DNA of 39,732 nt from Candidatus Aenigmatarchaeota archaeon (GCA_016202875.1 JACQNX010000077.1:1-39732), one strand, 5' to 3'. Positions 439 through 22,619 are shown, counted from the stretch's first letter. Program-made: numbers and translations. Notes: generated by a model not told the origin, from the sequence alone.

Positions 439-666
439 TTGATGCAGCTCAGCGTAAGAGATGTTGATGACAGCGTATTCAAGAAATTCAAGGCTTGGGC
501 AGCTGAAGAAGACATGCCAATAGGAAAAGCGCTCACCATGGCTATGGACCAGTTCATAGCTTGGAGAGACACTAAAATTAAGCCAACGGATATTAAACCT
601 CTCAATCTCGGGAAACGTGCAAGGAATCTTAGCGAAGAAATAGATAAAGTTTTGTACGGTGATTAG
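439..666 (+). CDS. vapB: Small antitoxin (VapB-like) of a PIN-toxin pair
   Basis: 75-aa ORF with TTG start, immediately 5' of a PIN-domain ORF. Small, charged N-terminal DNA-binding-like region (MQLSVRDVDDSVFKKFKAWAAEE). Confidence 0.6.
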   Translation: MMQLSVRDVDDSVFKKFKAWAAEEDMPIGKALTMAMDQFIAWRDTKIKPTDIKPLNLGKRARNLSEEIDKVLYGD

Positions 667-1068
667 ATTTCTATATTAATTGACTCAAGTGTTCTGGTTT
701 CAGCCTATAGTGAGACAGATAAAAATTATGAAATAGGGCGTAAAATATTGAAAGATATAGAAAGTGGAAAGTATGGAGAATGGTTTGTATCGGACTATGT
801 AATTGATGAAACTTTAACTGCCATGTTCTCGATATCGAAAAATAAAGAAGAAGTGGCAAAACTTGGTAAAAATCTTCTAAAGGCGTTCACACTGCTCAGC
901 GTGCCTCATGTCATATTCCTTGATGCTTTTGAAATATTCTCGAAGAAAAATAAAATGAGCTTCACTGATTCCACTTTACTTTCAATGGCAAACAAATATG
1001 GTATTGAATACATAGCCACATTCGATAAGGAAATCAAAAAGCATTTCAAAAACTGTGTGGATTCGTGA
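667..1068 (+). CDS. vapC: PIN-domain ribonuclease toxin (VapC-like); start codon unresolved
   Basis: All PIN acidic positions are present: ILIDSSVL, DYVIDET, SFTDSTLL, IATFDKE. The first Asp (LID, about nt 679-687) lies upstream of the first ATG/GTG/TTG (748). The frame runs directly out of the vapB TAG at 664-666. Confidence 0.7.
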   Translation: MSILIDSSVLVSAYSETDKNYEIGRKILKDIESGKYGEWFVSDYVIDETLTAMFSISKNKEEVAKLGKNLLKAFTLLSVPHVIFLDAFEIFSKKNKMSFTDSTLLSMANKYGIEYIATFDKEIKKHFKNCVDS

Positions 1069-1076
1069 ATTGAAAA

Positions 1077-1943
1077 ATGGTCCTCGAGCAGCTCATCGTC
1101 AACGGCATCATCGCGGGCGGCATCTACGCCCTTGTTGCGATAGGCTTCTCGATGACCTACGGCCTGCTGCGGTTCCTCAACATCGCCCACGGCTCGCTCT
1201 ACGTCATCGGGGCGTACCTCGCGTTTGTGTTCTTCTCCGCGGGCTTGCATATTGTAGGCGCTTTCATCCTTGCGGTCATCGGCGGCGCGCTTGCCGGCGT
1301 CGTGATGAACTATTCAGTATACAAGCCGCTTCGCAAAAAAAAGTCCAGCTCCCTCATCATGCTGCTGGCTTCTCTCGGCATCTTCATATTTGTTGAGAAC
1401 TTCATAATCGCGGCATTCGGCGCAGAGGTGAGGACGATAAGGACAGGCCCTGTGACGCAGGGCATGGACTTTCTTGGCGCCATCATCACGCAGACGCAGG
1501 TCGTGATAATAATTGTTTCCTTGCTGACGCTGCTGCTGGTTGAATTATTCCTGCTGAAAACAAAAACAGGAAAGGCTATGCGCGCGACAGCAGACAACAA
1601 GGACGTGGCGCAGGTTGTCGGCATCAATGTTGAGAGAATTACAACTTATACATTTGCACTTGCATCTGCGCTTGCTGCGAGCGCTGGCGTGCTGATAGCG
1701 ATAGAGCAGAACCTAGAGCCGACGATGGGGTTCACTGCGATTATCAAGGGCTTTACGGCAGGCGTTGTAGGAGGGCTGGGCTCTGTCAGGGGAGCAGTGG
1801 CAGGCGCATTTCTTTTGGGATTAGTTGAGAACATCGGGATATGGTTCCTGCCATCGGGCTACAAGGACGCGATTGCGTTTGTAGTGCTTGTAATTTTCCT
1901 GCTCTTCAGGCCGCAGGGGATTTTCGGGAGGAAGGAGGCGTGA
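1077..1943 (+). CDS. livH: Branched-chain amino acid ABC transporter permease LivH
   Basis: 288 aa, multi-TM. Typical LivH N-terminus (LEQLIVNGIIAGGIYALVAIGFSMTYG) and C-terminus (GIFG). ATG 8 nt after the vapC stop. Confidence 0.9.
   Translation: MVLEQLIVNGIIAGGIYALVAIGFSMTYGLLRFLNIAHGSLYVIGAYLAFVFFSAGLHIVGAFILAVIGGALAGVVMNYSVYKPLRKKKSSSLIMLLASLGIFIFVENFIIAAFGAEVRTIRTGPVTQGMDFLGAIITQTQVVIIIVSLLTLLLVELFLLKTKTGKAMRATADNKDVAQVVGINVERITTYTFALASALAASAGVLIAIEQNLEPTMGFTAIIKGFTAGVVGGLGSVRGAVAGAFLLGLVENIGIWFLPSGYKDAIAFVVLVIFLLFRPQGIFGRKEA
1887..1938 (+). repeat. 52-nt direct repeat copy 1 (3' end of livH including GGAGGAAGGAGG)
   Basis: CTTGTAATTTTCCTGCTCTTCAGGCCGCAGGGGATTTTCGGGAGGAAGGAGG is identical to 3064-3115. 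Confidence 0.95.
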
Positions 1944-3046
1944 AGAGAAGAACGCAGTGGATTGTAATAGTCATTGTAGTTCTTATTCTGGCAGCTTATG
2001 GAACATATTTACAAATGCAACAACCAAAAGAAGAAACAATAAAGATCGGGGCAATACTACCACTAACCGGACTTTATAGCGAAAATGGTCAAAACTCGCT
2101 CAGGGGTTATGAACTTGCGGTTGGCGAAATAAACAGTAAAGGCGGGATAAATGGCAAAAAAATCGAATTAGTTATCGAAGACCATAAGGGGGATGATAAT
2201 GTAGGCGCAGTAAATGCTTATCATAGCATACAAGCTAAAGGAGTAAAAATAATACTTGGACCAAATCATAGTCCAACAGGCCTTGCTGTTGCGCCTATTG
2301 CGTGCCAGGACAAAGCATTGCTTATTTCCCCGTCTATAGGCACTAAAAAATTCTCGCCTACCTGCAATACTATATTCGATGTCTGGCCGGTAGACTATGC
2401 AAACAGCAAAAAGCTGGGAGAAATCGTGGTTAGAAAAGGCTACAAGAAAATTTCTATACTAGGCTCTGTGCAAGAATGGGAAAAAGAACAAGCAGATGCC
2501 GCAAAAGAAGGTGTTCTGTCGGAGAACGGAAACCTTGCAAATTTCATTATAACAGACAACAGCCCGGCAATCGTCAACGCAGATATAACTAAAATAATAA
2601 GTTCCGGAACAGACGCAGTAATATTCACAAACTATGGATACATGGATATCTACGCCAGAAAACTGAAGGAATTTGGATCGGATGGAGATTTTTTTGTTGT
2701 AATCCTTGACGAGACAAGAAAGGATAACGCCCAAGGAGCTTTTGAAAATGCTATAGTAATCTCGTCCTACTCACCTACCCAAGAGTTTATAGAGAAATTT
2801 TCACGCAAATACAACACCAAACCGGATTTTCCGGCAGATACAAGTTATGATGCAGTGATGATTTTAGCCAATTCAATAAAAGAAACAAACAGCACCGATC
2901 CGCCTGTGCTTTCAGAGTATATGCTGAAAATCAAAAATTATGCAGGGGCGTCCGGCAACTTTTCATTTACATCTTCAGGTGACGTCACAAAAGAGCCCAT
3001 ATTTCAAACTGTTCAGAACAACACCATAGTGATGTATGAGGGATGA
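1940..3046 (+). CDS. LivK-type ABC substrate-binding protein, membrane-anchored
   Basis: GTG 1940 overlaps the livH stop (GTGA). N-terminal TM (WIVIVIVVLILAAYG), then IKIGAILPLTG..GINGKKIELVIEDHKGD. The 1841 start in the ORF track is read-through of the livH tail in another frame. Confidence 0.85.
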   Translation: MKRRTQWIVIVIVVLILAAYGTYLQMQQPKEETIKIGAILPLTGLYSENGQNSLRGYELAVGEINSKGGINGKKIELVIEDHKGDDNVGAVNAYHSIQAKGVKIILGPNHSPTGLAVAPIACQDKALLISPSIGTKKFSPTCNTIFDVWPVDYANSKKLGEIVVRKGYKKISILGSVQEWEKEQADAAKEGVLSENGNLANFIITDNSPAIVNADITKIISSGTDAVIFTNYGYMDIYARKLKEFGSDGDFFVVILDETRKDNAQGAFENAIVISSYSPTQEFIEKFSRKYNTKPDFPADTSYDAVMILANSIKETNSTDPPVLSEYMLKIKNYAGASGNFSFTSSGDVTKEPIFQTVQNNTIVMYEG

Positions 3047-3063
3047 AGATAGCTTTCGTCATC

Positions 3064-3115
3064 CTTGTAATTTTCCTGCTCTTCAGGCCGCAGGGGATTT
3101 TCGGGAGGAAGGAGG
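3064..3115 (+). repeat. 52-nt direct repeat copy 2 (orphan copy of the livH 3' end)
   Basis: 100 percent identical to 1887-1938. Ends 1 nt before the ATG of the next SBP gene. Confidence 0.95.
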
Positions 3116-3116
3116 G

Positions 3117-4211
3117 ATGAAATTACTAATTATTTTATTGTTAATTGGGCTGGTTGCAGCAGCTGGATGCGTGCAGGAACAGAAAATGCGAGAGACCGAA
3201 CCATACAAGTTCGGAGCCGCCTTGCAGCTCTCCGGACCTCAGGCGTTTTATGGAAATTTAGTCAAGTATGGCATTGAGCTCGCTACTGAAGACATAAACA
3301 GCGCCGGCGGTATCAATGGCAGGCCAGTTGTAGCGCTTTTCGAAGATACAGCCAGCGACCGTGCGCAAGCAGCGGAAGCTGCCCAAAAGCTCATCCAGGT
3401 TAATAGGATCGATGCACTCTTTACGATTACGCCATGGGTTGCTGGTGTCGTTGCACCGATTGCCGAAGAGAACAAGGTGCCTTATATCTATATAGGATCA
3501 GTTAACGTCTTTGCCTTGAACAAAACATATGTCTTCAAGGATTATCCTTCGCCCCAAGACCTCTGCGAAATCCTGACCAAGAAAGCCCTTGAGGAAGGGC
3601 ACCGCAAAATCGCACTTTTCGGGACTAACGATGAAGTCACCCTTTTCTGCAGGGAGGGTGCCGAACGGCTTACTAACTTGGATGTATTTGAAACCTACAA
3701 TTATGGCGACAAAGACTTCAGAACGCAATTCACGAAGATAAAAGACAGCGGGGCTAGCGCATTGATATTATATGCACAGGTGGCAGACTGCCCGACCACC
3801 TTCAAACAGATCAAAGAACTTGGAATAAGTGTGCAGCTCCTTTTACCTGTACAGAGCTTTGCATGCGGCAGCGCCGATAATACCGCTGCAAACGTTGACG
3901 TATTGGAAGGCTCGTATGGGTCGGACATCGCCCTTGACGAAAACCGCAGAGATACAGCATTCGTGTCGTTCAGAAAGAGACTGGAAGAAAAAGGCTGGCT
4001 TCTCAACATCAGGGGTAGCGCACTTGCCTACGATGTTGTCCATGAAATGGCGAAGGCCTATAGCGGCTGCAACAACAGCCTTTGTGCCGTCAATAACATC
4101 AGATCATTGCAGATGCAAGGGCTTACCGGAAATATCAGCTATAATGGGACTCAAATAGTCAAACGCCAAGTGATGCTAACGAAATTCGTTAACGGCACGT
4201 GGGGAGAGTAG
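3117..4211 (+). CDS. LivK-type ABC substrate-binding lipoprotein
   Basis: MKLLIILLLIGLVAAAGC lipobox-like signal, then GAALQLSGPQAFYG..GINGRPV. The ORF-track start at 3036 is an artefact of the repeated livH tail. Confidence 0.85.
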   Translation: MKLLIILLLIGLVAAAGCVQEQKMRETEPYKFGAALQLSGPQAFYGNLVKYGIELATEDINSAGGINGRPVVALFEDTASDRAQAAEAAQKLIQVNRIDALFTITPWVAGVVAPIAEENKVPYIYIGSVNVFALNKTYVFKDYPSPQDLCEILTKKALEEGHRKIALFGTNDEVTLFCREGAERLTNLDVFETYNYGDKDFRTQFTKIKDSGASALILYAQVADCPTTFKQIKELGISVQLLLPVQSFACGSADNTAANVDVLEGSYGSDIALDENRRDTAFVSFRKRLEEKGWLLNIRGSALAYDVVHEMAKAYSGCNNSLCAVNNIRSLQMQGLTGNISYNGTQIVKRQVMLTKFVNGTWGE

Positions 4212-4273
4212 CATGAATAATGCTTTTATATACTTTAGTATTAATTTAATATTAAAATGATATTGGCGATACC

Positions 4274-4399
4274 ATGAAGATAAGAGGCAAGAACGTTACC
4301 TACTCTATGCACCTCTTAGGCAAACTTTACAGGGAAGATCACTTGGACATCGTTAACAATATACTGAAAACCGGGAAGTGGGAAAAGAAAGGTGGTTAG
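4274..4399 (+). pseudogene. Truncated small toxin-like ORF, homologous in position to 7545-7814
   Basis: 41-aa ORF (MKIRGKNVTYSMHLLGKLYREDHLDIVNNILKTGKWEKKGG) directly 5' of a Zn-ribbon/AbrB antitoxin gene. About half the length of its counterpart. Confidence 0.35.
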
Positions 4400-4443
4400 A
4401 GAGTTCCCAGACAGATTCAAAATAATAACCATAGGTGGTAAAT

Positions 4444-4758
4444 ATGAAAAGATATACCAGATGTGAATGCGGCGGAGAGTTGAAGCTGGCTGAAGTAGAA
4501 GTTGTGCCAGGTATAAAGAGCGAGGCCTACAGATGCGAGAAATGCGGGGAAATGGAATTCACAGAAGAGCAGATGAGGGAAGCTTTGCGCAAGAAAGAGA
4601 GAGCAATAAAAATAATGGTCACCCGCAAGCTTGGCGAGATTGGCGGCTCTTTGGTGCTTAGAATACCAAAGTCAGTAGAGAACCGGATGAAATTAAAGGC
4701 CGGCGAAGAAGTCAGCGTTACAGTAGAAAAAAACAAAATTATCATTGAGCCTGCATGA
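4444..4758 (+). CDS. Zn-ribbon + AbrB/SpoVT-fold antitoxin-like DNA-binding protein
   Basis: CECGG..CEKCG zinc ribbon, then SpoVT/AbrB-like GGSLVLRIPKSVENRMKLKAGEEV. AGGTGG lies 6 nt before ATG 4444. Paralog of 7232-7570. Confidence 0.65.
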   Translation: MKRYTRCECGGELKLAEVEVVPGIKSEAYRCEKCGEMEFTEEQMREALRKKERAIKIMVTRKLGEIGGSLVLRIPKSVENRMKLKAGEEVSVTVEKNKIIIEPA

Positions 4759-4795
4759 ATAGCAAAAAGCTAGCTGTAAGAAGAGACTCTCATGA

Positions 4796-5233
4796 AAAAA
4801 GAGCGCAGTGGCAGGCGCCTTCCTCAAGCAAGCAAGAGAGCTCGGAATAAATGCTACCATCATTAGCATGTCAGAGGCAGAAGATCCCAATGTTCTCGAA
4901 TCTGCAGGAAATGCTGCCGAAGGATTTATCATATCTTCATCAGAACCTGCTATAAAAACGGACAGCATCAAGCGCTTTGAAGAAAGCTACAAAAACAAAT
5001 TCGGCAGACTGCCAGATGTGCTGGCTGCAAACGCCTATGATGCACTGCATATACAGATTGCAGCCTACCAGAAGTGCCTAGGCGGGAAAGAATGCATGAA
5101 AGCCGAGCTGCACAAAACAAGCAACTATCCAGGAATCAGCGGCCAGATAACAATCCAGCCAGATGGCTCGACATCAAAGCCATTGATCTTAAAAATTGTC
5201 AGGAACGGCACGTTCGTGAGGTATGAGGAATGA
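4796..5233 (+). pseudogene. 5'-truncated LivK-type SBP gene (C-terminal lobe only)
   Basis: Frame opens after TGA 4793-4795. Encodes only ..GAFLKQARELGI..AAEGFI..ANAYDALH..ISGQITIQPDGS..KIVRNGTFVRYEE. No signal peptide or N-lobe. Confidence 0.75.
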
Positions 5234-5241
5234 AGGCGTGC

Positions 5242-5973
5242 TCACGCTTCAGCGGGCTTCGCGATTTTCCATAGTATGTCGACGTAGCTCCTGTAAGATT
5301 CTGCAACTTCTTCGCTGTCTACGACTATTACGGTGATTATCTCAAACATTAGCCAGAATGTTACCTTGTTTCCAAATATAACTGTTACTACAGGACTCTT
5401 GTAGCCTTTTGGCAGGAACCTCATGTTAAAACCTTTGATTTTGATTTGTTTTGCACCTTCCATGCTAAGATATCTTCCCTTAATGCCAAGCTTTTCCATT
5501 TGTTTATACCATCTTTTGTGGAATTCTGGAAAAAGCGACCGTGTCCTGTACTGGTCTATGCCTATACCTATTATTTCTTTCCCGGTTTTCACGGTTTCTC
5601 TTGTCCCCATGCTTATGACATTCTTGGCGCCTTCCTTGCCCTCATAAACTTCTACTTTTGGCCTGCTTTTGAGCGGTTTGTAAATACTTTTAAGATCTGG
5701 GAGGACTTCTTCCACTGCCTTCTTTTTCTGCTCAATAAAAGAAACGAGGCTCTCGGGGTCTGCAGGGATGAAAAATTTCTTATTGCCCTTGATCACAGTG
5801 CTGGTCATCCCCTTTTTGATCAGAGAATTAAGCGTGTCGTATGTATTTGTTCTCTGCTCCCCAGACATTTTCGAAATCTGGGCAGCAGTAGCCTCCTTTA
5901 GCCTTAGCAAGTTTATGTACGCCTCTGCTTCCCGCTTTGACAAACCTGCCTCTATGAGGGATTTGACTTCCAT
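5242..5973 (-). CDS. TrmB-family transcriptional regulator
   Basis: N-terminal wHTH (LIEAGLSKREAEAYINLLRLKEATAAQISKMSG) plus a TrmB-type C-terminal domain. Divergent from the SBP gene at 6056. Confidence 0.8.
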   Translation of the reverse strand: MEVKSLIEAGLSKREAEAYINLLRLKEATAAQISKMSGEQRTNTYDTLNSLIKKGMTSTVIKGNKKFFIPADPESLVSFIEQKKKAVEEVLPDLKSIYKPLKSRPKVEVYEGKEGAKNVISMGTRETVKTGKEIIGIGIDQYRTRSLFPEFHKRWYKQMEKLGIKGRYLSMEGAKQIKIKGFNMRFLPKGYKSPVVTVIFGNKVTFWLMFEIITVIVVDSEEVAESYRSYVDILWKIAKPAEA

Positions 5974-6055
5974 ACACAATAATTATGTATTCGTATTTAT
6001 ATTTGTATATTTTTATACAACATATCTTTAAACACTACCATGTAATAATAACTCT

Positions 6056-7180
6056 ATGGTGTGGTCGAAATACACGGTCCTTGCAGTGTTCGTTGCAGCA
6101 GTAGTTATTGCACTTCTTGTTGCGCTCAATACAGCGCAGCGAGCGGAGACAATAAAAATCGGCACAGACTATGCACTCACTGGGAATCTAGCGCGATACG
6201 GCGACTGGGCAACCAGGGGAATTAATCTGGCTGCTGAAGAAATAAATTCACAAGGCGAAATTAACGGGGAGCATGTTGAGATTATCTTTGAGGACAGCAA
6301 AGGCCAACCGTCTGACGCTGTAACTGCCTACAACAAATTGAAAAATGTTGACGGCGTAAAGTATGTCATCACCTTCCAGAGCAGTGTCGCATTGGCAGTC
6401 GCAAAGCTGGCAAATGAAGACAAAATAGTACAAATGGACGTTTCCGCCACTACACCGTCATACAGCACGCCAGATGATTATACTTTCAGAAGCGGCATAG
6501 TCGCGACACAGCTTGCCAAAGAATCTGCAGACGTACTGTTCAATAAGCTTAATGCAACAAAAGCCGGGATTCTTTACATCAACAACGACTTTGGCAGGGG
6601 GATGTTAAACGTTTTCAAGAATTCTTACAAAGGAGAAATAGCTGCTGAGGAGAGCTTTGATCAGGACACTTCTGATTTCAGGACGCAGCTCCTTAAGTTA
6701 AAGGAAGCAAACGTGAGCACAATATTCCTTGTTTCGCACATCAAAGAAGGCGGGATCCTTGTCAGGCAGGCTAGAGAAATGGGGCTGAATGCAAAATTCT
6801 TCAGCGATGTCTATTCTGTGGAAGGTCCGGAATTCATCAATACGGCAAAAGATGCGGCAGAAGGGATAATCTATGTTTCCCCGAAATTTGATGTGAACGG
6901 GACTGATCCAGCTGTTTCGTCATTCGTCACGCGCTACAGAGAAAAATACGGCGAAGAGCCTGTCGTGTTCGCAGCGCAGGCTTACGACGGATTAATTGCG
7001 CTTGCCAAAGCCCTGAAAAACTGCAAATACGAAGACACGGATTGTGTGAGGCAGGAACTGATGAAACTGGACATGGAGGGCGCATCCGGCCATATCAAGT
7101 TCGATATCAATGGCGATGTCCAGAAGCCTGTGGAATTAAAAATAATTTCAAATGGAACGTATATGACATACGGTGGCTGA
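6056..7180 (+). CDS. LivK-type ABC substrate-binding protein, membrane-anchored
   Basis: N-terminal TM, then IKIGTDYALTGNLARYG..INGEHVEIIFEDSKGQP..AQAYDGL..ASGHIKFDINGDV. Confidence 0.85.
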   Translation: MVWSKYTVLAVFVAAVVIALLVALNTAQRAETIKIGTDYALTGNLARYGDWATRGINLAAEEINSQGEINGEHVEIIFEDSKGQPSDAVTAYNKLKNVDGVKYVITFQSSVALAVAKLANEDKIVQMDVSATTPSYSTPDDYTFRSGIVATQLAKESADVLFNKLNATKAGILYINNDFGRGMLNVFKNSYKGEIAAEESFDQDTSDFRTQLLKLKEANVSTIFLVSHIKEGGILVRQAREMGLNAKFFSDVYSVEGPEFINTAKDAAEGIIYVSPKFDVNGTDPAVSSFVTRYREKYGEEPVVFAAQAYDGLIALAKALKNCKYEDTDCVRQELMKLDMEGASGHIKFDINGDVQKPVELKIISNGTYMTYGG

Positions 7181-7231: not shown

Positions 7232-7570
7232 CTAATCGAGCTCGATCCCTATTCTTGTCATGCTTTCGGGGGACAGCCCCACGGTTTCGCCCTTTTGCAG
7301 GCCGTACAGTTCGGTGATTTCTTTGGGAAGCGTTATCACAAGGCTCTGGCCGACTGTCCTTATCTTCACCCTAACGCGGCTTTTCTTCAGCGCCTCAAAC
7401 CTGCTTATTTTCAGCGAGTCCTCGGGATGGATGTACTCCTTTTTGCACTTTTTGCAGACCCAGCCCCTTACTTCGTAGTCTTTGTATTTTACAGTGCTTC
7501 TGCCAGCCATGCCACCGCATTCGCACGGTATCTCTGTCCACTTGTTAATGTCCACCTGTTTTGCCGACAT
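7232..7570 (-). CDS. Zn-ribbon + AbrB/SpoVT-fold antitoxin-like protein
   Basis: CECGG..CKKCK zinc ribbon, then GQSLVITLPKEITELYGLQKGETV. Overlaps the upstream small toxin-like ORF by 26 nt. Confidence 0.65.
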   Translation of the reverse strand: MSAKQVDINKWTEIPCECGGMAGRSTVKYKDYEVRGWVCKKCKKEYIHPEDSLKISRFEALKKSRVRVKIRTVGQSLVITLPKEITELYGLQKGETVGLSPESMTRIGIELD

Positions 7571-7814: not shown

Positions 7815-7873
7815 AGATTTCTAGACTTATATATCTTTGATTGAATATTTAAAGATATCTTAAGATATCTTGA

Positions 7874-8035: not shown

Positions 8036-8095
8036 AAGCGCTGGGACACATGAGCATATTTAAGCTATAAGCTGCAATTAATTAATGGTGATATT

Positions 8096-8275: not shown

Positions 8276-8276
8276 G

Positions 8277-10246: not shown

Positions 10247-10252
10247 AAAACC

Positions 10253-15312: not shown

Positions 15313-15387
15313 TTTTATTCAGGAGCGAAATTCAATTTACAAACGGCTAATGACATCAGATTTAAACATGCCAACAAAATAATTAGC

Positions 15388-15513
15388 ATGCTGTCAAATA
15401 AAAAAGGCAATTGGGGATTTGTGCTTTCAAAAGAGGCTTCTATTACCGAAAAGGAAGCCGCAAAGATCAAAGAAATGATTAAAATCTTTGAAAAAGAATA
15501 CGGCTTTGATTGA
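15388..15513 (+). CDS. Small ORF, possible antitoxin remnant
   Basis: 41-aa ORF immediately 5' of a PIN C-terminal remnant. No motif recognised. Confidence 0.25.
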   Translation: MLSNKKGNWGFVLSKEASITEKEAAKIKEMIKIFEKEYGFD

Positions 15514-15514
15514 C

Positions 15515-15592
15515 TTAAATGGTGCTACTATCGTTACTAGAGACAGACATTACAAGGCTGTCCGCGGGCTAAAGATATCTATGGTGAGTTAA
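15515..15592 (+). pseudogene. C-terminal remnant of a PIN-domain toxin gene
   Basis: LNGATIVTRDRHYKAVRGLKI matches the C-terminal T-x-D..F/Y..v.gl motif of VapC. Its stop overlaps the livG start (TAATG). Confidence 0.55.
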
Positions 15593-16347
15593 TGCTCCTC
15601 CAAGCCAAGAAAGTATCAAAGCGTTTCGACGGCATAACCGCAGTTGACAGCTGCAGCTTTGACGTGAAGGAGGGCGAGATTCTCGGGCTTATAGGACCCA
15701 ACGGCTCGGGCAAGACGACCATGTTCAATGTCGTGACAGGCGTACATGATGCAGACAGCGGAGCAATTGTGTACAAGGGAGAAGACATCACCGGCTGGCC
15801 AACAGATGAAAGGGCGCGCTTTGGCATAGGCAGGACATTCCAGCTCATCAGGCTATTCCCCAGGCTGACCGTAATGGACAACATGCTGATCGCGCAGAAA
15901 TACGCGCACGCGGAAAAATTCTGGTCGCAGCTTTTCAGAAAGAAACATGTAAAAGAAGAGGAACTGGCGAAGAGAAAAAGGTCCATCGAACTGCTGAAAA
16001 TGGTGAACCTGCATGAAAAGGCAGACGACCTGACTGAGAACCTCAGCTACGGCCAGCAGAAGCTGCTGGAAATAGTAAGGGCGCTTGCGATGGAGCCTGA
16101 ATTGCTGTTGTTGGATGAACCAATTGCTGGTGTAAACCCTACAATGACAAAGCAGATACTTGGTCTGATCAAACAGCTCAATGAAAGCGGCATGACCATC
16201 GTGATGATTGAGCACAACATGAACGTGATGATGCGCTTTTGCGACCGCATGGTCGTGCTTGACTACGGGAAGGAGATCGCCATGGGGAAGCCGGCGCAGA
16301 TCAGGAAGAATAAGAAGGTTGTAGAGGCGTATCTGGGGAGGAAATAA
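15592..16347 (+). CDS. livG: Branched-chain amino acid ABC transporter ATP-binding protein LivG
   Basis: Walker A GPNGSGKTT, Q-loop, signature LSYGQQKLLEI, Walker B LLLLDEP, H-loop IEHNM. Has the LivG-specific insertion between the Q-loop and the signature motif. Confidence 0.9.
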   Translation: MLLQAKKVSKRFDGITAVDSCSFDVKEGEILGLIGPNGSGKTTMFNVVTGVHDADSGAIVYKGEDITGWPTDERARFGIGRTFQLIRLFPRLTVMDNMLIAQKYAHAEKFWSQLFRKKHVKEEELAKRKRSIELLKMVNLHEKADDLTENLSYGQQKLLEIVRALAMEPELLLLDEPIAGVNPTMTKQILGLIKQLNESGMTIVMIEHNMNVMMRFCDRMVVLDYGKEIAMGKPAQIRKNKKVVEAYLGRK

Positions 16348-16617
16348 TTACCATAATGTTTTTACGAGACCAGATTTTATTATTTCTTCATCTTTCGTCA
16401 GTACTATGGCATCCTGTATTTGTGCAGTTGCAACTATAGCCCTGTCATGCAACTCTAGCTTTTGGATTTCTGCCATTCTCTTTGCAATTTCCAGATCAAG
16501 CGGCATGATGATGAAATTACTGGTTTCCTCAAAACGTGAGAGCATTTCCTTAACATTGACTACTATTTTGCCTTTTTCGGCAAGCCATAGAGTCTCACAA
16601 AGAACTATAGTAGGCAC
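16348..16617 (-). pseudogene. N-terminally truncated PIN-domain toxin
   Basis: Aligns with residues ~38-127 of the PIN protein at 8277-8660 (..LHDRAIVATAQ..VLTKDEEII..). Lacks the N-terminal Asp segment. Only 5 nt separate it from the antitoxin stop. Confidence 0.6.
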
Positions 16618-16622
16618 AAAAA

Positions 16623-16793
16623 TTATTTCAGAAATTTTGCTTTCTTGATTTCATCTTCCAGTTTTTTCTTTTTAAGTGTGGTCTTAGCCATTCCGCTAAA
16701 AGAAACTGGCTTTTTTTTATTATTTTTGACGAATTTTTTAATTTCTTTAATTTCTTTTTCTAGATTTTCAATTCTTTTTTCCATGTAATCCAT
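16623..16793 (-). CDS. Small coiled-coil antitoxin-like protein
   Basis: MDYMEKRIENLEKEIKEIKKF.. is a paralog of 8096-8275. The longer ORF-track start (16847) is unlikely. Confidence 0.5.
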   Translation of the reverse strand: MDYMEKRIENLEKEIKEIKKFVKNNKKKPVSFSGMAKTTLKKKKLEDEIKKAKFLK

Positions 16794-16909
16794 AAAACCG
16801 CCTGAGATTATATAGCGCAGTGGCTTATAAACAAATCTGTGATGCAATAACTAACTTCTATAATGCCTCTTAATATCACAACGGCACATTTGTATTGGTA
16901 AAAAAGTGA

Positions 16910-17656
16910 TCAAGGCTTCGCAACTTTCCATACAGAGTAGAAGTAATTGCGCATGTCATTGGCAATTGCCTCGGATTTTATGATAAAAACCACAAACGGC
17001 TTTCTGAAAGAAGAGATGATTACACTATTACCAATAATGTCTATGTTGCCAGGCGTAGGGAAAGAAATAAACCTTGTTTTTTGCAAGCGCCTCATCTGCC
17101 TGTAGATCTTAGTTTGCGTGTAATCTCTGTTTGCAATACCTTTCACAACTATTTTTTGGCTTTTTACTAGTCTTTTGTATAGAGGAGTAAGCGCATTTAT
17201 AATATCGATCATTTCTTCATGATGCTGATAAAACCACAACCATTCTCCTTTATGCTCTTTCAGCGTTTTCGTATAAGCAGCCTGCAGCCCTTTTAGGCCA
17301 AGATAAATTTCAGCTTCCTGCTCAGGTTTATTCTTTCTCATCTCATTTAGCAGTGGAATTATTTTTTCAACTATTTTATAGTTTTCCAAGAAGTCTTTTT
17401 CTTGCCGTTCTAAATATGTTTTCAGGGCATCAGGCTCTGCTGCCTGGAAATACTTGACCTTATTTCTGACTACGAATGACGCCAATCCTTTCCCCATAAG
17501 GCGCTGAAGAACTTCGTAGATGTTAGAATATGCTATTCCGGATTTTTTGACAATAGGGCCTACAGTAGAAGATCCAAGCTCTATCAATGCAATGTAGACA
17601 TTTGATTCGCCCTTCGTAAGCCCCATTTTCATCAATTGCTCGCTGCCAAGATGCAT
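16910..17656 (-). CDS. TrmB-family transcriptional regulator
   Basis: wHTH LMKMGLTKGESNVYIALIELGSSTVGPI. Start chosen by alignment with the other three TrmB paralogs. Divergent from the SBP gene at 17743. Confidence 0.8.
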   Translation of the reverse strand: MHLGSEQLMKMGLTKGESNVYIALIELGSSTVGPIVKKSGIAYSNIYEVLQRLMGKGLASFVVRNKVKYFQAAEPDALKTYLERQEKDFLENYKIVEKIIPLLNEMRKNKPEQEAEIYLGLKGLQAAYTKTLKEHKGEWLWFYQHHEEMIDIINALTPLYKRLVKSQKIVVKGIANRDYTQTKIYRQMRRLQKTRFISFPTPGNIDIIGNSVIISSFRKPFVVFIIKSEAIANDMRNYFYSVWKVAKP

Positions 17657-17676
17657 GTTACCACAATACCAACAAT

Positions 17677-17703
17677 GCTTAAATATACACACCCTGTACA
17701 GGG
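17677..17703. promoter_or_regulatory. Shared divergent promoter region: TATA-like GCTTAAATATAC followed by the 12-bp perfect palindrome CCCTGTACAGGG
   Basis: Read directly. Lies between the TrmB start (17656, minus) and the SBP start (17743, plus). Confidence 0.35.
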
Positions 17704-17742
17704 GGCATAAATGATAAATTGAAATTCAATTATCTAGTACTC

Positions 17743-18873
17743 ATGAAACGGGTGTGGATTGGCACAGTCGTGATAATAACAGTTGTAGCTGTTATTGCAA
17801 TCTTCAACAATTATACTGGTCAGGCTGCTGGAGAGAAGACTGTCAGAATAGGCGGCGCTTTTGCCTTGAGCGGATTCGGCTCTGGGTGGGGAGAGGTGGA
17901 AAGGAATGCAGCGATATTGGCCATAGAGGAGGCAAACGGCAATGGCGGCATTAATGGAAGAAAGATTGAACTGATTGTAGAAGATATAGCATCGTCAAAT
18001 ACCAAGACAGTTTCTGCTGTTTCCAAGCTGATAAACGTGGACAAAGTCGGCGTTATACTAGGGCCGTCATGGCTGGATACATTTAACAGCGCATCCCCGC
18101 TTTCTGATGAAAACAAAGTGGTCATGATCACACCGAGCGCGTCTATAACCGCGATAAAAAGCGAAAAGAACTACAGCTACATATTCTCTACGTGGTACAG
18201 TCCGGATCGAGAGGCAGAAGCGCTTGTGAAATATATTGAAAAGATGGGTGCAAAGCGCGTCGTATTTATTTTTCAGGATGATCCGTACTGGCAGGACTTG
18301 ACAGGATATTTGAAGACCCAACTGAAACTTTCAAATCTGGAACTTAGAGAAGACTTCAAAATTAAACCGGAAGAGACAGATTTCAGAACAGTTTTATTGA
18401 AAACAAAGAGTCTGCAACCAGATGCAATAGTCTTTGGCACAACAGGAGAACAGAGTCTTTTGTCTTTTCTGCAGCAGCGTGCTGTTATTTATCCGGAATC
18501 AATGCTTTTTACTATGACCTACATCGAGGAATTTGCATTTAAGGACAACTACAAAGGTCTGCTAGAAAACGTCAATTATCCATCTCCACAACAACCTGAT
18601 TCAAATTTTTCAGAAAAATACGAGAAAAGATTTGGCAAAAAACCTGTTTTTTCCGCTTCTAATTCTTATGATGCGGCTAACATGATAATAGCAGCTATGA
18701 AAGAAGGAAATATGGATGCTGAAAGCATAAGGACATATCTTCTCACCAAGACATTTACAACTATTACTTTTGGCGAAGCGCGGTTTGATGAAAATGGCGG
18801 TTTGGTGGGTGGTAATTTTGTCAACAAGCGTGTCAAAAACAATACAATAGAAATTGTGGCAGAGAACACTTAA
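17743..18873 (+). CDS. LivK-type ABC substrate-binding protein, membrane-anchored
   Basis: MKRVWIGTVVIITVVAVIAIF anchor, then VRIGGAFALSG..GINGRKIELIVEDI. Upstream alternative start at 17719. Confidence 0.85.
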   Translation: MKRVWIGTVVIITVVAVIAIFNNYTGQAAGEKTVRIGGAFALSGFGSGWGEVERNAAILAIEEANGNGGINGRKIELIVEDIASSNTKTVSAVSKLINVDKVGVILGPSWLDTFNSASPLSDENKVVMITPSASITAIKSEKNYSYIFSTWYSPDREAEALVKYIEKMGAKRVVFIFQDDPYWQDLTGYLKTQLKLSNLELREDFKIKPEETDFRTVLLKTKSLQPDAIVFGTTGEQSLLSFLQQRAVIYPESMLFTMTYIEEFAFKDNYKGLLENVNYPSPQQPDSNFSEKYEKRFGKKPVFSASNSYDAANMIIAAMKEGNMDAESIRTYLLTKTFTTITFGEARFDENGGLVGGNFVNKRVKNNTIEIVAENT

Positions 18874-18896: not shown

Positions 18897-20006
18897 ATGC
18901 GATATGCTCTGGTGCTATTTCTTGCTGCTGTTATCGCAATAAGCGGATGCGTTTCGCAGCCAACAGGCAACGTCACTGTAAGTGGTGAGAACAAGATAAA
19001 GATAGGCGCAATCCTGCCACTTACAGATGCTATAGCAGATTTCGGGCGGTTTGTGAAAGACGGCATAGAATTCGCCCGTGAAGACATAAACGACACCAAC
19101 TTAGAAATAATCTACGAAGATAACCAATTGTGTAGTACAGATCTTTCGGTAAGGGGCGCGAGGAAGCTTACAGATGTGGACAGGGTCTCTGCAGTAATAT
19201 CTATGTGTGCAGAGACTGCGCTGGGCATAGCGCCCATAGCCGAAGATGGCAAGGTTGTATCTTTTTCTGTCGGTGCGCTTCCTGACAGCGTGACGCAGGC
19301 AGGGGATTACACATTCAGGAACCAGGTCAGCGCAAAGTACGAAGGTCAGTTTCTTTCAGATTTCGCCCGCAGCAGGCTGAACGCAACGACTGTGGCGATA
19401 TTTTTTGTAAAGAACGACTATGGCGTAGGTGTGAAGGAGGGCTTCAAAAAAGCTTGGATAGAGGCAGGCGGTGCGATTGCTGCAGAAGAGGGCAGCGACA
19501 CAAACGACAAGGACTTCAGGACGCAGATAGCAAAGATAAAGGCCGCGAATCCTGATGTCGTCTTCGAGGTAGCAGAATTCCATGGCCTGTTTGCAAAACA
19601 GGCAAAAGAACTCGGGCTGAACAAGACCGTTCTTTCTATACAGACATTTCAAAATCCGGAAACCTTAACCTCGGCCGGAGACGCAGCTGACGGTATTCTT
19701 TACACCTATACGCTTAACGAGAAAAACCTCACTGAAAAACAGAAATTATTTATCAGCAGGTTTAAAGAAAAGTACGGATACGATGCTAATGTATGGAACT
19801 TGAACGCCTATGATGCATTAGTGATTCTATACGATTTAGCAAAGAAATGCAACAGCGACTCAACATGCATGAAGGACGGGCTTTACGAGGTAAAGAATTA
19901 TGAGGGCGTTGAGGGCACGATAGGCTTTGACGAAAACGGCGATGTCGTGAAGCATCTTGCGATAAAGACTGTCGTGAACGGCACGTTTATGGTGTACGAA
20001 GGATGA
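18897..20006 (+). CDS. LivK-type ABC substrate-binding lipoprotein
   Basis: Lipobox AISGC, then IKIGAILPLT..LNAYDAL..GTIGFDENGDV..TVVNGTFMVYEG. Confidence 0.85.
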   Translation: MRYALVLFLAAVIAISGCVSQPTGNVTVSGENKIKIGAILPLTDAIADFGRFVKDGIEFAREDINDTNLEIIYEDNQLCSTDLSVRGARKLTDVDRVSAVISMCAETALGIAPIAEDGKVVSFSVGALPDSVTQAGDYTFRNQVSAKYEGQFLSDFARSRLNATTVAIFFVKNDYGVGVKEGFKKAWIEAGGAIAAEEGSDTNDKDFRTQIAKIKAANPDVVFEVAEFHGLFAKQAKELGLNKTVLSIQTFQNPETLTSAGDAADGILYTYTLNEKNLTEKQKLFISRFKEKYGYDANVWNLNAYDALVILYDLAKKCNSDSTCMKDGLYEVKNYEGVEGTIGFDENGDVVKHLAIKTVVNGTFMVYEG

Positions 20007-20038: not shown

Positions 20039-21142
20039 ATGCTGCGTGCTGCTCATCTAATAACATTGTCAATTGCCTTAGTACTTCTGGTTTCTGGCTG
20101 TGTGCAGCAGCAGACAGACACAGTTAAGATCGGCGCAGTGCTGCCGCTTACAGGGTCTGTCAGCGTCTACGGTGAATATGCACGAAATGGAATCGACCTT
20201 GCCCTGGAAGATCTTAATGCAAGCGGGAAGAAAATAGAAGTTGTCATTGAAGACAGTAAGGGACTGCCTTCAGAAGGCGTAACCGCATTTCATAAATTAG
20301 CTGCCGACAACGGCATCAAGGCAATCATCTCTATGACAAGCTCTGTTTCTGTTCCCCTAGTTCCGCTGGCTGAAGAGAAAAAAATACCGCTCATAATGAC
20401 AGTGGTAGCGGCTTCGAATGTAACAGACAAAAGTGTATGGGCATACAGATATTTTCATAGCGCTGACTTGGAAGGTCCGGCACTGGCAAAACTTGTTATT
20501 ACATATTTGAATGTGACAAAGATCGCTATCTTATATGTCAATGACGAATACGGCGGATCAACCTACAGGGCTTTCAAAAACACATGCGAGTCCCTCGGCT
20601 GTACAATAACCGCTCAGGAAACTTTCCTCTTTGCCGATACGGATTACAGGACGCAGCTGCTGAAGATAGCAGATTCGAAACCGGACGCAATATTTATTGT
20701 AGGATTTTCGCAGCATCTGCCCACAATCTATAAGCAATCAAAGGAATTAGGCATGGAACAGACGCTCATCACAACAAGCGGAATGTCTGTCCCGGCGATT
20801 ATCAACAAAACAGGCAGCGCAGCCGAGAACTCCTACCTGACAGTCAGCTACTACTCTGCAAATCCTGATGATCCCGGTGTCAAAAGATTCAATGACCGCT
20901 ACAGAAGCCGTTTCGGCACAGAGCCTAGCTACTTTGCTGCCTATATCTATGATTCGGTAATGATGATTGCCGAATCAATGAAAAACGGCACAAGCAGAGA
21001 AAATATAAAGAACAGCCTGGCAAAGATCTCTTATTCCGGCCTCATGGGCAATGCGTCCTTCCTCGAGAACAGAGACGCCAACATGCCGGTATTTTATGCT
21101 GCAATCAGGAATGGCACACTGGTACCGATAAAACAGGTGTAA
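20039..21142 (+). CDS. LivK-type ABC substrate-binding lipoprotein
   Basis: Lipobox LVSGC, then VKIGAVLPLTGSVSVYG..IEVVIEDSKG..DYRTQLLKI. Confidence 0.85.
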   Translation: MLRAAHLITLSIALVLLVSGCVQQQTDTVKIGAVLPLTGSVSVYGEYARNGIDLALEDLNASGKKIEVVIEDSKGLPSEGVTAFHKLAADNGIKAIISMTSSVSVPLVPLAEEKKIPLIMTVVAASNVTDKSVWAYRYFHSADLEGPALAKLVITYLNVTKIAILYVNDEYGGSTYRAFKNTCESLGCTITAQETFLFADTDYRTQLLKIADSKPDAIFIVGFSQHLPTIYKQSKELGMEQTLITTSGMSVPAIINKTGSAAENSYLTVSYYSANPDDPGVKRFNDRYRSRFGTEPSYFAAYIYDSVMMIAESMKNGTSRENIKNSLAKISYSGLMGNASFLENRDANMPVFYAAIRNGTLVPIKQV

Positions 21143-21198
21143 CTTGCAATTTTTACACCACAGAAACTACTTAAGCTTAGTTATATAAAATATAACTG

Positions 21199-21459
21199 GT
21201 GATGGGAGTGCAGGAAGTAGAGGCTACAACCAAGAAGTGGGGGAGTTCGGTGGGCATAGTTATACCGAAGGATGTTTTGGAGAAAGAGAAGATAAAGGTG
21301 GGAGAAAAGGTTCACCTTTTTCTAAGAAAACCTGTGGACATAAAGAAATCCATGAAGGCATGGGAAGATATGCAAAAAGCCGGTAAAGAGATTTCAAAGA
21401 GATGGAAAGGCCCTTCTGCTGTAGAGGAGATAAGGCAACAGCGCACAAAAGAGTGGTGA
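21199..21459 (+). CDS. vapB: AbrB/SpoVT-type antitoxin (VapB-like)
   Basis: KKWGSSVGIVIPKDVLEKEKIKVGEKV swapped-hairpin motif. Stop 1 nt before the PIN gene. Confidence 0.65.
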   Translation: MMGVQEVEATTKKWGSSVGIVIPKDVLEKEKIKVGEKVHLFLRKPVDIKKSMKAWEDMQKAGKEISKRWKGPSAVEEIRQQRTKEW

Positions 21460-21460
21460 A

Positions 21461-21907
21461 ATGCTCATTACTCTAGATTCTTCTGTAATTGTTGCAAGTG
21501 TCATGGAAAAAGAAGAACATCATGATGCCTGTGCAAAATTAATGAATAAGTTATCTAAAGCTGAGTACGACGCTGCTGTGCCTTATTCTGTTCTGGTGGA
21601 GGTTACAGCATCGGTCAAAAGGCGTACCGATTCCGAAGAACTAGCCACAATAATTGAGAATGACTTAAAAAATATATCCTCGATAAATTTTTTTGAGCTT
21701 TCAGAATGGAGAACAGAAGAAGCAGTTGTGATAGCAGCGAAAACTGGTTTAAGGGGCATGGATGCGATTATTGTTCAAATTGCGAAAGAGCATGACGCAT
21801 CGCTAGTCACCCTTGACAACGAGATCGTACAGCGCGCGCAGAGTATTGTTAACATCATAAAAATTGAAGACATACTAAGCAAGGAAAGAAATGGAGAAGA
21901 TGAATAG
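21461..21907 (+). CDS. vapC: PIN-domain toxin (VapC-like)
   Basis: MLITLDSSVIVA N-terminal Asp motif, LVEV, GLRGMDAIIVQIA, LVTLDNEI. 148 aa. Confidence 0.8.
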   Translation: MLITLDSSVIVASVMEKEEHHDACAKLMNKLSKAEYDAAVPYSVLVEVTASVKRRTDSEELATIIENDLKNISSINFFELSEWRTEEAVVIAAKTGLRGMDAIIVQIAKEHDASLVTLDNEIVQRAQSIVNIIKIEDILSKERNGEDE

Positions 21908-21908
21908 C

Positions 21909-22619
21909 ATGAAATCTATGACCCTCCTTTCAGTCTCGCATGTGTCGAGCGGCTACGGCAAGAACGAAGTGCTGCAGGACGTGTCGTTCCGCGTGGACGA
22001 GGGTGAGATTGTCTCGCTCATCGGGCCGAATGGCGCAGGCAAGAGCACTGCATTGAAAACGGTTTTTGGCTTCCTCGCTGTGCAGAAAGGGGATATAACA
22101 TTTGACGGGAATGGGATTACGAAAAAAAAGCCGCATGAGATGGCAAAGCTCGGGATGTGCTTCGTGCACCAGGGCAGGCAGATTTTCCGGAACATGACTG
22201 TGGAGGAGAATCTGATTTTAGGGGCTTTTGCTGACAAAAAACTCGAGAAAAATGTAGACAAAGTTTACTCTGTCTTTCCAGTCCTAAAACAAAAGAAAAA
22301 AGCTAACGCGAGCACGCTGAGCGGCGGCCAGCAGCAGCAGCTCGCGATAGGAAGGGCGCTGATGCTCAAGCCGAAGCTGCTGCTGCTTGATGAGCCGTCG
22401 CTTGGGCTGGACCCGAAAACTGTCCAGCTCGTTTTTGGCAAAATAAAAGAGATCAGAAAGCATGGCACGACAATTCTTCTCGTCGAGCAGAATGCACGCA
22501 TGGCGCTGGAGATAAGTGACAGGGCTTACGTTTTTGAGACCGGAAGGATAAAGTTGGAAGGTGCAGGCAGGAAGTTGCTGAAAAACAAAAACGTGCAGAA
22601 GCTTTATTTGGGTGGTTAA
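21909..22619 (+). CDS. livF: Branched-chain amino acid ABC transporter ATP-binding protein LivF
   Basis: Walker A GPNGAGKST, signature LSGGQQQQLAIGRAL, Walker B LLLLDEPS, LVEQN. ATG 21909 lies 1 nt after the vapC stop. In-frame ATGs at 21891 and 21900 overlap vapC. Confidence 0.9.
   Translation: MKSMTLLSVSHVSSGYGKNEVLQDVSFRVDEGEIVSLIGPNGAGKSTALKTVFGFLAVQKGDITFDGNGITKKKPHEMAKLGMCFVHQGRQIFRNMTVEENLILGAFADKKLEKNVDKVYSVFPVLKQKKKANASTLSGGQQQQLAIGRALMLKPKLLLLDEPSLGLDPKTVQLVFGKIKEIRKHGTTILLVEQNARMALEISDRAYVFETGRIKLEGAGRKLLKNKNVQKLYLGG

Follow-up and report, generated by a model that had tools for sequence, protein, structure and literature searches.

This study analysed a 39,732-nt stretch of DNA (GCA_016202875.1 JACQNX010000077.1:1-39732, hereafter the window) in which each of the four core genes of a LivHMGF-type ATP-binding cassette (ABC) importer for amino acids, together with a recQ helicase gene, lies directly behind a toxin-antitoxin (TA) cassette with a PIN-domain toxin on the same strand. 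The arrangement arose when TA cassettes with a promoter but no terminator entered the gene junctions of the liv locus, independently of one another, in sense orientation and with a nucleotide-tight fit. That these TA promoters drive the liv genes and recQ by read-through is considered moderately probable from the layout of the promoter-like signals, and the further idea that dependence of the downstream genes prolongs the survival of a cassette is more speculative. The presence of a cassette before all four core genes is the extreme of a clade-wide habit in liv loci, not an affinity for the core genes.

Five cassette-gene junctions

The preliminary description of the window had listed five TA/PIN-to-gene junctions, and all five are real, on the + strand, with gaps of 8, 21, 6-9, 0 and about 1 nt. 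The cassettes at heads 1, 2, 3 and 5 are referred to as TA1, TA2, TA3 and TA5:

Head 1, +: A1 (439-666; putative antitoxin of 75 aa, ribbon-helix-helix-like by eye, no family model match) and PIN1 (667-1068; Pfam PIN, GTG start out of frame), then livH with ATG at 1077; gap 8 nt
Head 2, +, 8096-8660: A2 (8096-8275; 59 aa) and PIN2 (8277-8660; Pfam PIN), then livM at 8682; gap 21 nt
Head 3, +, 9642-10246: A3 (9642-9875; 77 aa, marginal AbrB-like N-terminus) and PIN3 (9872-10246; variant PIN), then recQ with TTG at 10253 or ATG at 10256; gap 6 or 9 nt
Head 4, +: cassette remnant (15388-15592), then livG at 15592; TAATG overlap
Head 5, +, 21199-21907: AbrB/MazE antitoxin A5 (21199-21459) and PIN5 (21461-21907), then livF; gap 1 nt

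For livF, ATG 21909 is the likely start, favoured because homologue alignments begin at residues 6-12 of the long open reading frame (ORF); the alternative starts at 21891 and 21900 overlap PIN5.

The PIN toxins share merely 11-21% identity with PIN1 and therefore represent unrelated acquisitions, bearing out the earlier statement that the five heads are not one duplicated block. A single duplicated block was ruled out by these identities and by a repeat search, which returned similarity internal to the solute-binding protein (SBP) genes and one 74-nt duplication.

Insertion history in related loci

Relatives were collected by a livM scan with one genome per species, yielding 80 loci; in L001-L009, livM is 65-92% identical to that of the window. 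A look-up of the livM of the window by exact sequence returned no record. The following states of the locus were found among them:

L006, L010, L012: contiguous livHMGF
L004, L008: livM-livG-livF contiguous
L009: livM-(TA3)-livG-livF, without recQ
L001: (TA1)-livH-SBP-livM-(TA3)-recQ, without TA2
L003: livM-(different RHH_6/PIN cassette)-recQ ... TrmB2-(remnant)-livG
L002, L005: TrmB2 adjoining livG, with a 29-nt spacer

This series of states implies insertion in particular lineages, with cassettes both gained and lost in place. The synteny comparison suggested in the preliminary description, which had asked if livHMGF is contiguous in related genomes and TA insertion lineage-specific, is thus answered in the affirmative, with contiguous operons in three relatives and intermediates elsewhere. 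Additionally, TA modules of several types were found before liv genes or recQ in other genomes:

L002: VapB/PIN before livF, gap 51 nt
L003: RHH_6/PIN before recQ
L004, L005: MNT-HEPN before livH
L021, L037: MNT-HEPN before livG
L025: AbiEii/AbiEi before livG, and PIN before livF
L047: AbiEii/AbiEi before livM
L062: AbiEii/AbiEi before livF
L028: PIN, a homologue of the TA2 toxin of the window, before livF

The junctions between liv genes and TA modules of the other classes that were checked with Pfam and local hidden Markov models (HMMs) have gaps of -8 to 25 nt. Different TA types occupy this kind of slot in other genomes, and the insertions are therefore independent. SBP genes are also adjoined by TA modules, namely MNT/HepT in L022, HEPN/MNT in L026 and ParE, at a distance of 41 nt, in L062.

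The age of two of the heads was assessed against L001. The ratio of nonsynonymous to synonymous divergence (dN/dS) is 0.10-0.25 for PIN1, PIN3 and A3 (about 0.10 for PIN1) at dS of about 1 or more, suggesting that these head positions are old and the proteins constrained; the ratios are used qualitatively only, since synonymous sites are near or beyond saturation, with dS of at least 1 in most pairs and undefined values for A1 and TrmB2.

Boundaries of the mobile unit

A DNA alignment of TA2 with four homologous cassettes in unrelated contexts (74% mean column identity) delimits the inserted unit. Homology sets in at a conserved TTTAA(G/A)CTATAG element some 40 nt before the antitoxin ATG and ends exactly at the PIN stop codon, while the flanks of the aligned cassettes are mutually unrelated. 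The boundaries of TA3 in the window, L001 and L009 follow the same pattern, from the cassette's own promoter to the toxin stop. As mapped for TA2 and TA3, the mobile unit is promoter, operator, antitoxin and toxin, about 0.6-0.7 kb in all, without a 3' region. Because a unit of this build enters an operon with native junctions of 0-30 nt, the toxin stop lands a few nucleotides before the next start; the placement of the core genes immediately behind the cassettes is therefore largely a product of cassette build and of insertion into an already compact operon.

The TA2 cassette also occurs with sharp ends and unrelated neighbourhoods in other metagenomic archaeal contigs (L081, L086, L087 and L089), in L086 directly after a TrmB gene, and neither terminal repeats nor a recombinase were seen. 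At the left edge of TA3 in the window, the left arm of the operator palindrome, GGGTAAA, includes the stop codon of livM (9576-9581); the last livM codons are therefore cassette-derived, with zero spacer to the TA3 promoter.

Three other modes of arrival were considered and rejected. Joint movement of a TA module and its downstream gene is contradicted by TA3, which stands before recQ in the window and in L001 and before livG in L009, by the recQ of L003, which is headed by a different cassette, and by TA2, which heads livM here and livF in L028. Arrival of the cassettes inside blocks of SBP and TrmB genes is contradicted by L009 and L028, which carry a single cassette in an otherwise contiguous operon. 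Targeting of a tRNA or other RNA gene was set aside, as neither a tRNA gene nor an Rfam family (at gathering thresholds) was detected in the window.

Promoters, operators and proposed read-through

Promoters were scanned for with the archaeal TATA consensus TTTAWATA, allowing at most one mismatch, which gave 66 matches on the + strand (0.09 expected per 55 nt). The motif is predictive in this window: it has nine exact matches over both strands, of which seven are 22-52 nt ahead of an ORF start and one more falls within the palindromic A5 promoter. TATA-like boxes were found 22-41 nt upstream of A1, A3, A5 and the livG remnant, and at the same distance from the SBP gene that comes first after each divergent TrmB gene. 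Such boxes therefore precede four of the five cassette heads, with a weaker box before A2, as listed here with the putative operators:

403-438, +, TA1 promoter region: exact TATA TTTAAATA at 403-410, palindrome ACATGT-ATG-ACATGT at 410-424, GGTGG Shine-Dalgarno motif
8055-8095, +, TA2 promoter region: TTTAAGCTATAAGCT at 8059-8073, AATTAATTAAT palindrome, GGTGA Shine-Dalgarno motif; left edge of the TA2 homology
9576-9641, +, TA3 promoter/operator: palindrome GGGTAAA...TTTACCC at 9576-9597, exact TATA TTTAAATA at 9603-9610, TTACCC repeat, GGTGA Shine-Dalgarno motif
15361-15592, +, decayed VapB/PIN cassette heading livG: TATA-like TTTAAACA at 15361-15368, GGTGA Shine-Dalgarno motif at 15583
21170-21198, +, TA5 promoter region: perfect palindrome AGTTATAT-AAA-ATATAACT at 21179-21197, containing a TATA-like box

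Between the window and L001, the TA1 promoter is 87% identical over 39 nt and the TA3 promoter 94% identical over 67 nt, the latter although synonymous sites of the flanking genes have diverged to dS 0.5-1.2. By contrast with the cassette heads, the consensus scan found no TATA-like box at -70 to -15 of livH, livM, recQ, livG, livF, any PIN gene or the internal SBP genes. The earlier remark that the gaps leave no room for separate promoters agrees with this result, as the 70 nt in front of each liv gene and of recQ are free of TATA-like boxes. In relatives, liv genes without a TA module have spacers of 29-55 nt with TATA-like boxes.

No T-run was found in any of the PIN-to-gene gaps; an oligo-T terminator scan was otherwise discarded as uninformative, since runs of T5 or longer occur inside many genes. 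The liv genes of the window retain Shine-Dalgarno-like motifs, for example GGTGA before livG, and such motifs are expected for internal genes of polycistronic archaeal mRNAs. Taken as sequence signals, the layout of TATA-like boxes and palindromes fits transcription of the liv genes either from the TA promoters or from promoters further upstream. The preliminary description had proposed that each subunit gene and recQ is transcribed from, and autoregulated with, a TA promoter; the promoter layout stands, as the cassettes carry TATA-like boxes and palindromes and no such box lies near the liv genes, whereas co-transcription and autoregulation are drawn from sequence only.

In the proposed explanation, an ancestral compact livHMGF operon would have been expanded in this lineage by SBP and TrmB modules and by recQ, and the same locus would have been invaded at no fewer than seven places by compact type II TA cassettes. 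A cassette with its own promoter and without a 3' untranslated region or terminator would enter a very short co-directional junction, leaving its toxin stop 0-21 nt from the next start. The genes livH, livM, recQ, livG and livF would then be transcribed by read-through from the preceding TA promoter, some of them also from more distant SBP promoters, provided that neither a terminator nor a gene on the other strand comes between, and each downstream gene would be translated from its own Shine-Dalgarno motif. Such insertions would be non-polar and hence tolerated. Once a downstream gene depended on the cassette promoter, only precise loss would be tolerated, and retention at the heads would be favoured.

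The same promoter layout has been weighed as adaptive recruitment, in which TA promoters, de-repressed as starvation or stress leads to the breakdown of labile antitoxins, would make expression of the translocon stress-responsive and free of the SBP regulons, with every SBP set remaining under a TrmB regulator of its own. Bacterial TA loci, and some archaeal ones, are known to be autoregulated and induced by stress. In the window, TrmB-controlled SBP modules separate the core genes, each of which would need a promoter independent of any one SBP regulon; the cassette promoters have palindromic operators and have diverged less than synonymous sites; before livG, the decayed cassette retains a leader and a TATA-like box; and different TA classes have converged on the same slot. 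This account is purely inferential, TA cassettes also head SBP genes, and many relatives use short TATA-bearing spacers without a TA module. Adaptive recruitment is judged quite unlikely.

Chance, preference and density

Background frequencies were derived from the window and the 80 related loci (1.12 Mb) with crude gene calls (longest ORFs), and in this set 26-35% of genes lie no more than 25 nt from a co-directional neighbour. The probability of at least four of the five PIN genes adjoining a downstream gene is then 0.02-0.05, and that of at least five of six, with the remnant included, 0.006-0.02. This chance calculation is suggestive only, and the comparative data carry more weight. TA modules adjoin a gene in 19 of 30 cases inside liv loci vs. 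4 of 17 elsewhere (p = 0.015), and homologues of TA2 in eight unrelated contexts have a co-directional gene within 25 nt in 0-1 cases. The density of TA toxin genes is about 4-fold higher within liv loci than in the flanking parts of those contigs (32 vs. 10, p = 7e-5), a comparison biased by local TA HMM seeds that came from cassettes inside liv loci. The alternative raised in the preliminary description, that TA modules abut downstream genes at the same frequency everywhere through gene packing, is thus at variance with the inside/outside comparison, whereas the count for the window itself departs from it modestly.

The suggestion that cassettes preferentially insert or survive before core genes did not hold. 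Across the 81 sequences, TA occupancy is 16 of 272 for core-gene slots vs. 3 of 58 for co-directional SBP-gene slots (p = 1.0); a difference is confined to the lineage of the window (10 of 33 vs. 0 of 20, p = 0.008), with events that are not independent. Overall, the evidence supports a habit of colonising co-directional junctions in such loci rather than an affinity for the four core genes.

Plain packing would explain the window by neutral or selfish TA insertions into a compact operon, with liv promoters inside the PIN genes or upstream SBP genes and a coincidental all-four pattern. A gene inserted within an operon always adjoins the next one; the co-directional background is already substantial and four of five PIN genes exceed it by little; core genes are not preferred to SBP genes over all loci; and two decayed cassettes of the window, along with several intact ones in relatives, head nothing. 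Set against this are the TATA-like boxes at the cassette heads and their absence within 70 nt of the liv starts, a T5 run after SBP7 just before the A5 promoter, the repeated appearance, in several lineages, of three or more unrelated TA classes ahead of liv genes, the greater TA density inside liv loci, the rarity of co-directional neighbours at TA2 homologues elsewhere, and the conservation of the TA1 and TA3 head positions over dS of about 1 or more. Packing is accordingly a possible but rather unlikely explanation.

Several points weigh against read-through from inserted cassettes, in addition to the crude gene calls, the seed bias and the even occupancy of core and SBP slots. The loci compared are contigs of metagenome-assembled genomes (MAGs), and the events are not phylogenetically independent. 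Many of the contigs with other TA classes before liv genes are labelled Woesearchaeota, Micrarchaeota or similar, and several of the MAG taxon labels are doubtful. Convergent junctions, too, hold many of the cassettes. The PIN genes may contain promoters beyond the reach of a consensus scan, the putative A2 TATA, TTTAAGCT, has two mismatches to the consensus, and T7 runs inside PIN3 (9895) and PIN5 (21688) could attenuate read-through. The retention argument in particular is weak: the livG cassette has decayed, the PIN1 start is broken, and copies of a further cassette (TAx) that are not at a head are intact in L001 and L002.

Toxins, antitoxins and decayed modules

The intact cassettes belong with VapBC by their PIN toxin (Pfam and acidic residues) and a small antitoxin gene directly upstream. 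Pfam PIN matches PIN1 at 5e-14, PIN2 at 2e-12 and PIN5 at 3e-15, and all of the D/E/D/D acidic residues are present in these three. PIN3 scores 22.9 bits, just under the Pfam cut-off of 23.6, and has three acidic residues and a variant fourth position ('SSEH'); its family is kept in L001 and L009, and a local PIN HMM matches it at 7e-26. Antitoxin and toxin genes are 0 nt (A1/PIN1), 1 nt (A2/PIN2) and 1 nt (A5/PIN5) apart, and A3 and PIN3 overlap by 4 nt.

Among the antitoxins, only A5 has a significant family match (MazE/AbrB, 6e-7). For A1, A2 and A3, no Pfam match was obtained at E<=0.01 and no NCBIfam match at a useful E-value; the AbrB signal of A3 is marginal (E 0.04 over 15 residues at the N-terminus), and A1 is 69-70% identical to its L001 orthologue. 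The earlier count of at least three antitoxin types was therefore not confirmed by family models, whereas the diversity of the PIN toxins is clear.

PIN1 has no in-frame canonical start, as a 1-nt deletion relative to L001 shifts its GTG out of frame, and A1 and PIN1 consequently stand in one frame with a single TAG between them (660-680). Use of this in-frame TAG for read-through or recoding was set aside, since L001 has an ordinary overlapping GTG start. The most plausible reading is a 1-nt loss, which would be a recent inactivation, or else an error of assembly.

The remnant before livG consists of the C-terminal half of a VapB_antitox-type antitoxin (15388-15513) and the last ~27 PIN residues ('ATIVTRDRHYKAVRGLKI', about 15509-15592); the antitoxin part is common to L003, and the remnant is absent in L002 and L005. 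Beyond the five heads, the window holds two extra decayed PIN modules that head nothing:

12931-12990, +: TAx remnant (RHH_6/PIN148 cassette), last 20 PIN residues (70% identity, E 5e-5)
16348-16847, -: decayed TA2 paralogue, with an A2-like antitoxin (16623-16847) and an N-terminally truncated PIN (16348-16617)

The TAx cassette is intact at the matching place in L001, downstream of recQ. The TA2 paralogue lies 0 nt from the livG stop, is convergent on livG and heads no gene. In total, three of the seven cassettes in the window are dead.

The importer locus and its host

Pfam scans of all sizeable ORFs place the locus in an archaeal chromosome segment with genes for ribosomal protein S6e (27626-28153) and aIF2-gamma (28363-29454). 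The best named homologues of aIF2-gamma are from Aenigmatarchaeota (63-69% identity), and the host is probably an uncultured archaeon of this group (DPANN). The aIF2-gamma ORF measures 363 aa from its first canonical start vs. ~400-420 aa in most listed homologues, and its Pfam match begins at profile position 52; translation probably starts further upstream or at a non-canonical codon.

The first 24.6 kb of the window form a single LivHMGF-type ABC importer locus, in which the identities of livH, livM, livG, livF and recQ are all backed by Pfam. The HAAT-family (LivHMGF) assignment follows from two BPD_transp_2 permeases, two ABC ATPases, one of which (livG) has a BCA_ABC_TP_C tail, and Peripla_BP_6 binding proteins. 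The features of the locus other than the cassettes are:

1077-1943, +: livH permease (BPD_transp_2, Pfam), 8 nt past the PIN1 stop
1940-7180, mixed strands: inserted block, with SBP1 (to 3046) and SBP2 (about 3117-4211) by Pfam, and the next four features
4435-4758, +: Zn-ribbon/AbrB protein
4808-5233: SBP C-terminal fragment
5242-5979, -: TrmB
6056-7180: SBP3
7232-7570, -: AbrB-domain protein
7545-7814, -: 89-aa ORF, exact TATA at 7853 (-)
7874-8035, +: SBP C-terminal fragment; repeat family D1 recorded for the stretch 7232-8035
8682-9581, +: livM permease, 21 nt past the PIN2 stop, native GGTAG-type Shine-Dalgarno motif kept
10253-12634, +: recQ helicase (DEAD, Helicase_C, RecQ_Zn_bind, RQC, HRDC, HTH_40), likely start ATG 10256
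13392-14504, -: SBP4
14590-15312, +: TrmB2
15592-16347, +: livG ATPase (ABC_tran and BCA_ABC_TP_C), TAATG overlap with the remnant
16910-17692, -: TrmB3
17719-18873, 18897-20006 and 20039-21142: SBP5, SBP6 and SBP7, with a T5 run at 21150
21909-22619, +: livF ATPase
22616-23356, -: TrmB4
23423-24559: SBP8, where the transporter locus ends

The core genes keep the canonical order H-M-G-F, all on the + strand from 1077 to 22619, in agreement with what had been noted before. The stretching of the operon over about 21 kb had been described as well, and the core genes are indeed dispersed over 21.5 kb; its main cause is the presence of ~9 SBP and four TrmB genes within 1-24.6 kb. About nine Peripla_BP_6 SBP genes or fragments and four TrmB-family regulators thus share the locus with one translocon (48-24559). 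Three of the four TrmB genes are divergent from an SBP gene, and the modules are mostly of the form TrmB(-)/SBP(+), which points to individually regulated binding proteins on one common translocon. TrmB/SBP modules also interleave the liv genes in many related MAG loci (e.g., L030, L049 and L059).

The RecQ protein is full-length and bacterial-type (RQC, HRDC and C-terminal HTH_40), inside the transporter locus of a DPANN-type archaeon; recQ is present in L001 and L003 and absent from L002 and L004-L009.

The livH 3' end (1871-1944) is repeated at 3048-3121 (74 nt, 89% identity), at the start of the second SBP gene, and this repeat is the footprint of a tandem duplication of a block with the livH 3' end and an SBP gene. 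A paralogue array with such duplication bears on a further explanation, drawn by analogy from sedentary integrons, in which the cassettes would act as anti-deletion anchors, post-segregational killing penalising the loss of core genes from a recombination-prone SBP/TrmB array. TA cassettes are interspersed and enriched in liv loci, PIN1 and PIN3 are under purifying selection, and TA cassettes with their own promoters stabilise integron arrays (PMC13108822). The SBP proteins are only ~30-45% identical to each other, though, and the longest direct DNA repeat is 74 nt; homologous deletion between SBP genes should therefore be rare. The dead cassettes and the broken PIN1 start also speak against anchoring, which in addition does not require sense orientation or a tight 3' junction, and this role would be very unlikely.

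Neighbouring observations

Two proteins of ~110 aa, encoded at 4435-4758 (+) and 7232-7570 (-), have a C-terminal AbrB/MazE-like domain and an N-terminal extension of ~65 residues (weak zinc-ribbon/MqsA-like) without a toxin partner, and may be regulators rather than antitoxins. The protein encoded at 4435-4758 is 92% identical to its L003 orthologue, above most of its neighbours. The 89-aa ORF at 7545-7814 (-), of unassigned family, overlaps the start of the AbrB-domain gene at 7232-7570, and the two genes (7232-7814) may have entered a former SBP gene together as one unit, leaving its C-terminal fragment at 7874-8035.

The S6e and aIF2-gamma genes are separated from the transporter locus by a small defence-like cluster (24635-27440), with exact TATA boxes at 25306, 25325 (-) and 26047:

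24635-25291, -: CARF/HFX_2341-like protein with a winged helix
25329-25817: DUF6847
26075-27440: HTH protein and DUF6036/AbiEii-like nucleotidyltransferase

Comparison with known systems

The cassettes resemble canonical chromosomal VapBC modules in that a small antitoxin gene overlaps or adjoins the PIN gene, a putative promoter with a palindromic operator lies upstream and the PIN acidic residues are conserved. Canonical VapBC modules are usually stand-alone and bicistronic, whereas the present cassettes lack a 3' region and are followed by an unrelated gene 0-21 nt past the toxin stop.

In Escherichia coli, livJ and livKHMGF provide one translocon that is served by more than one binding protein. 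The window shares with this system the transporter family, the H-M-G-F order and the several Peripla_BP_6 proteins per translocon, and differs from it in its ~9 SBP paralogues, in the sets paired with TrmB regulators and in core genes spread over 21.5 kb and broken by TA cassettes and recQ.

The TAC (toxin-antitoxin-chaperone) system of Mycobacterium tuberculosis (HigBA-SecB-like; mentioned in PMC8669151) also has a third gene co-oriented with, and directly next to, the TA pair. The third gene of TAC serves the TA system itself, whereas here it is a housekeeping or transport gene that differs by cassette. A TAC-like tripartite system was rejected on this ground, the third gene varying within a TA family: TA2 is followed by livM in the window, by livF in L028 and by nothing in the eight unrelated contexts, and TA3 by recQ in the window and L001 and by livG in L009.

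The closest analogue appears to be the TA cassettes scattered through sedentary chromosomal integrons, such as the Vibrio superintegron. These cassettes carry their own promoters, unlike their neighbours, and are thought to stabilise the array (PMC13108822); such internal promoters could also drive the integron cassettes downstream, an effect that has been described as largely unexplored (bioRxiv 10.1101/2023.11.21.568050). As in integron arrays, several unrelated promoter-bearing TA modules are scattered among co-oriented genes. Unlike in integrons, the window has no integrase and no attC-like element, nor room for one in the 0-21 nt before the next start, the host is an archaeon, and what follows the cassettes is recQ and the subunit genes of a single transporter instead of promoterless accessory cassettes. 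No integrase domain was found among the scanned ORFs of >=100 aa and no local inverted repeats at the cassette ends. An integron-like array was ruled out by the lack of an integrase, of attC-like inverted repeats and of space, and by homology that ends at the stop codon. A literature search returned no description of an ABC importer with every subunit gene headed by a TA module.

Significance

The function of chromosomal TA modules has long been an open question, and the locus and its relatives form a natural series from a contiguous operon through a single cassette to every core gene headed. Along this series, cassettes with a promoter and no terminator would have come to form the 5' ends of transcription units whose genes are presumably needed by the cell. 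The locus also documents the mobile unit of an archaeal VapBC cassette with boundaries at the nucleotide level. A broader proposal is that terminator-less TA cassettes (VapBC, MNT-HEPN and AbiE) are mobile promoter modules, repeatedly recruited before the shared translocon genes of multi-SBP importers in DPANN-type archaea, which would uncouple the translocon from the TrmB/SBP regulons and tie its expression to antitoxin turnover under starvation or stress; this generalisation is considered unlikely at present. If such promoter recruitment were true, a physiological role of TA modules would come from their promoters rather than from their toxins.

If read-through takes place, the cassettes and their downstream genes would form tri- or polycistronic units with a variable third gene. 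TA cassettes could then rewire the expression of neighbouring genes in archaea, and the persistence of TA modules would be partly explicable by the dependence of downstream genes on them. For the organism itself, the locus represents an importer with one translocon and many individually regulated SBPs in a DPANN lineage that probably depends on scavenging.

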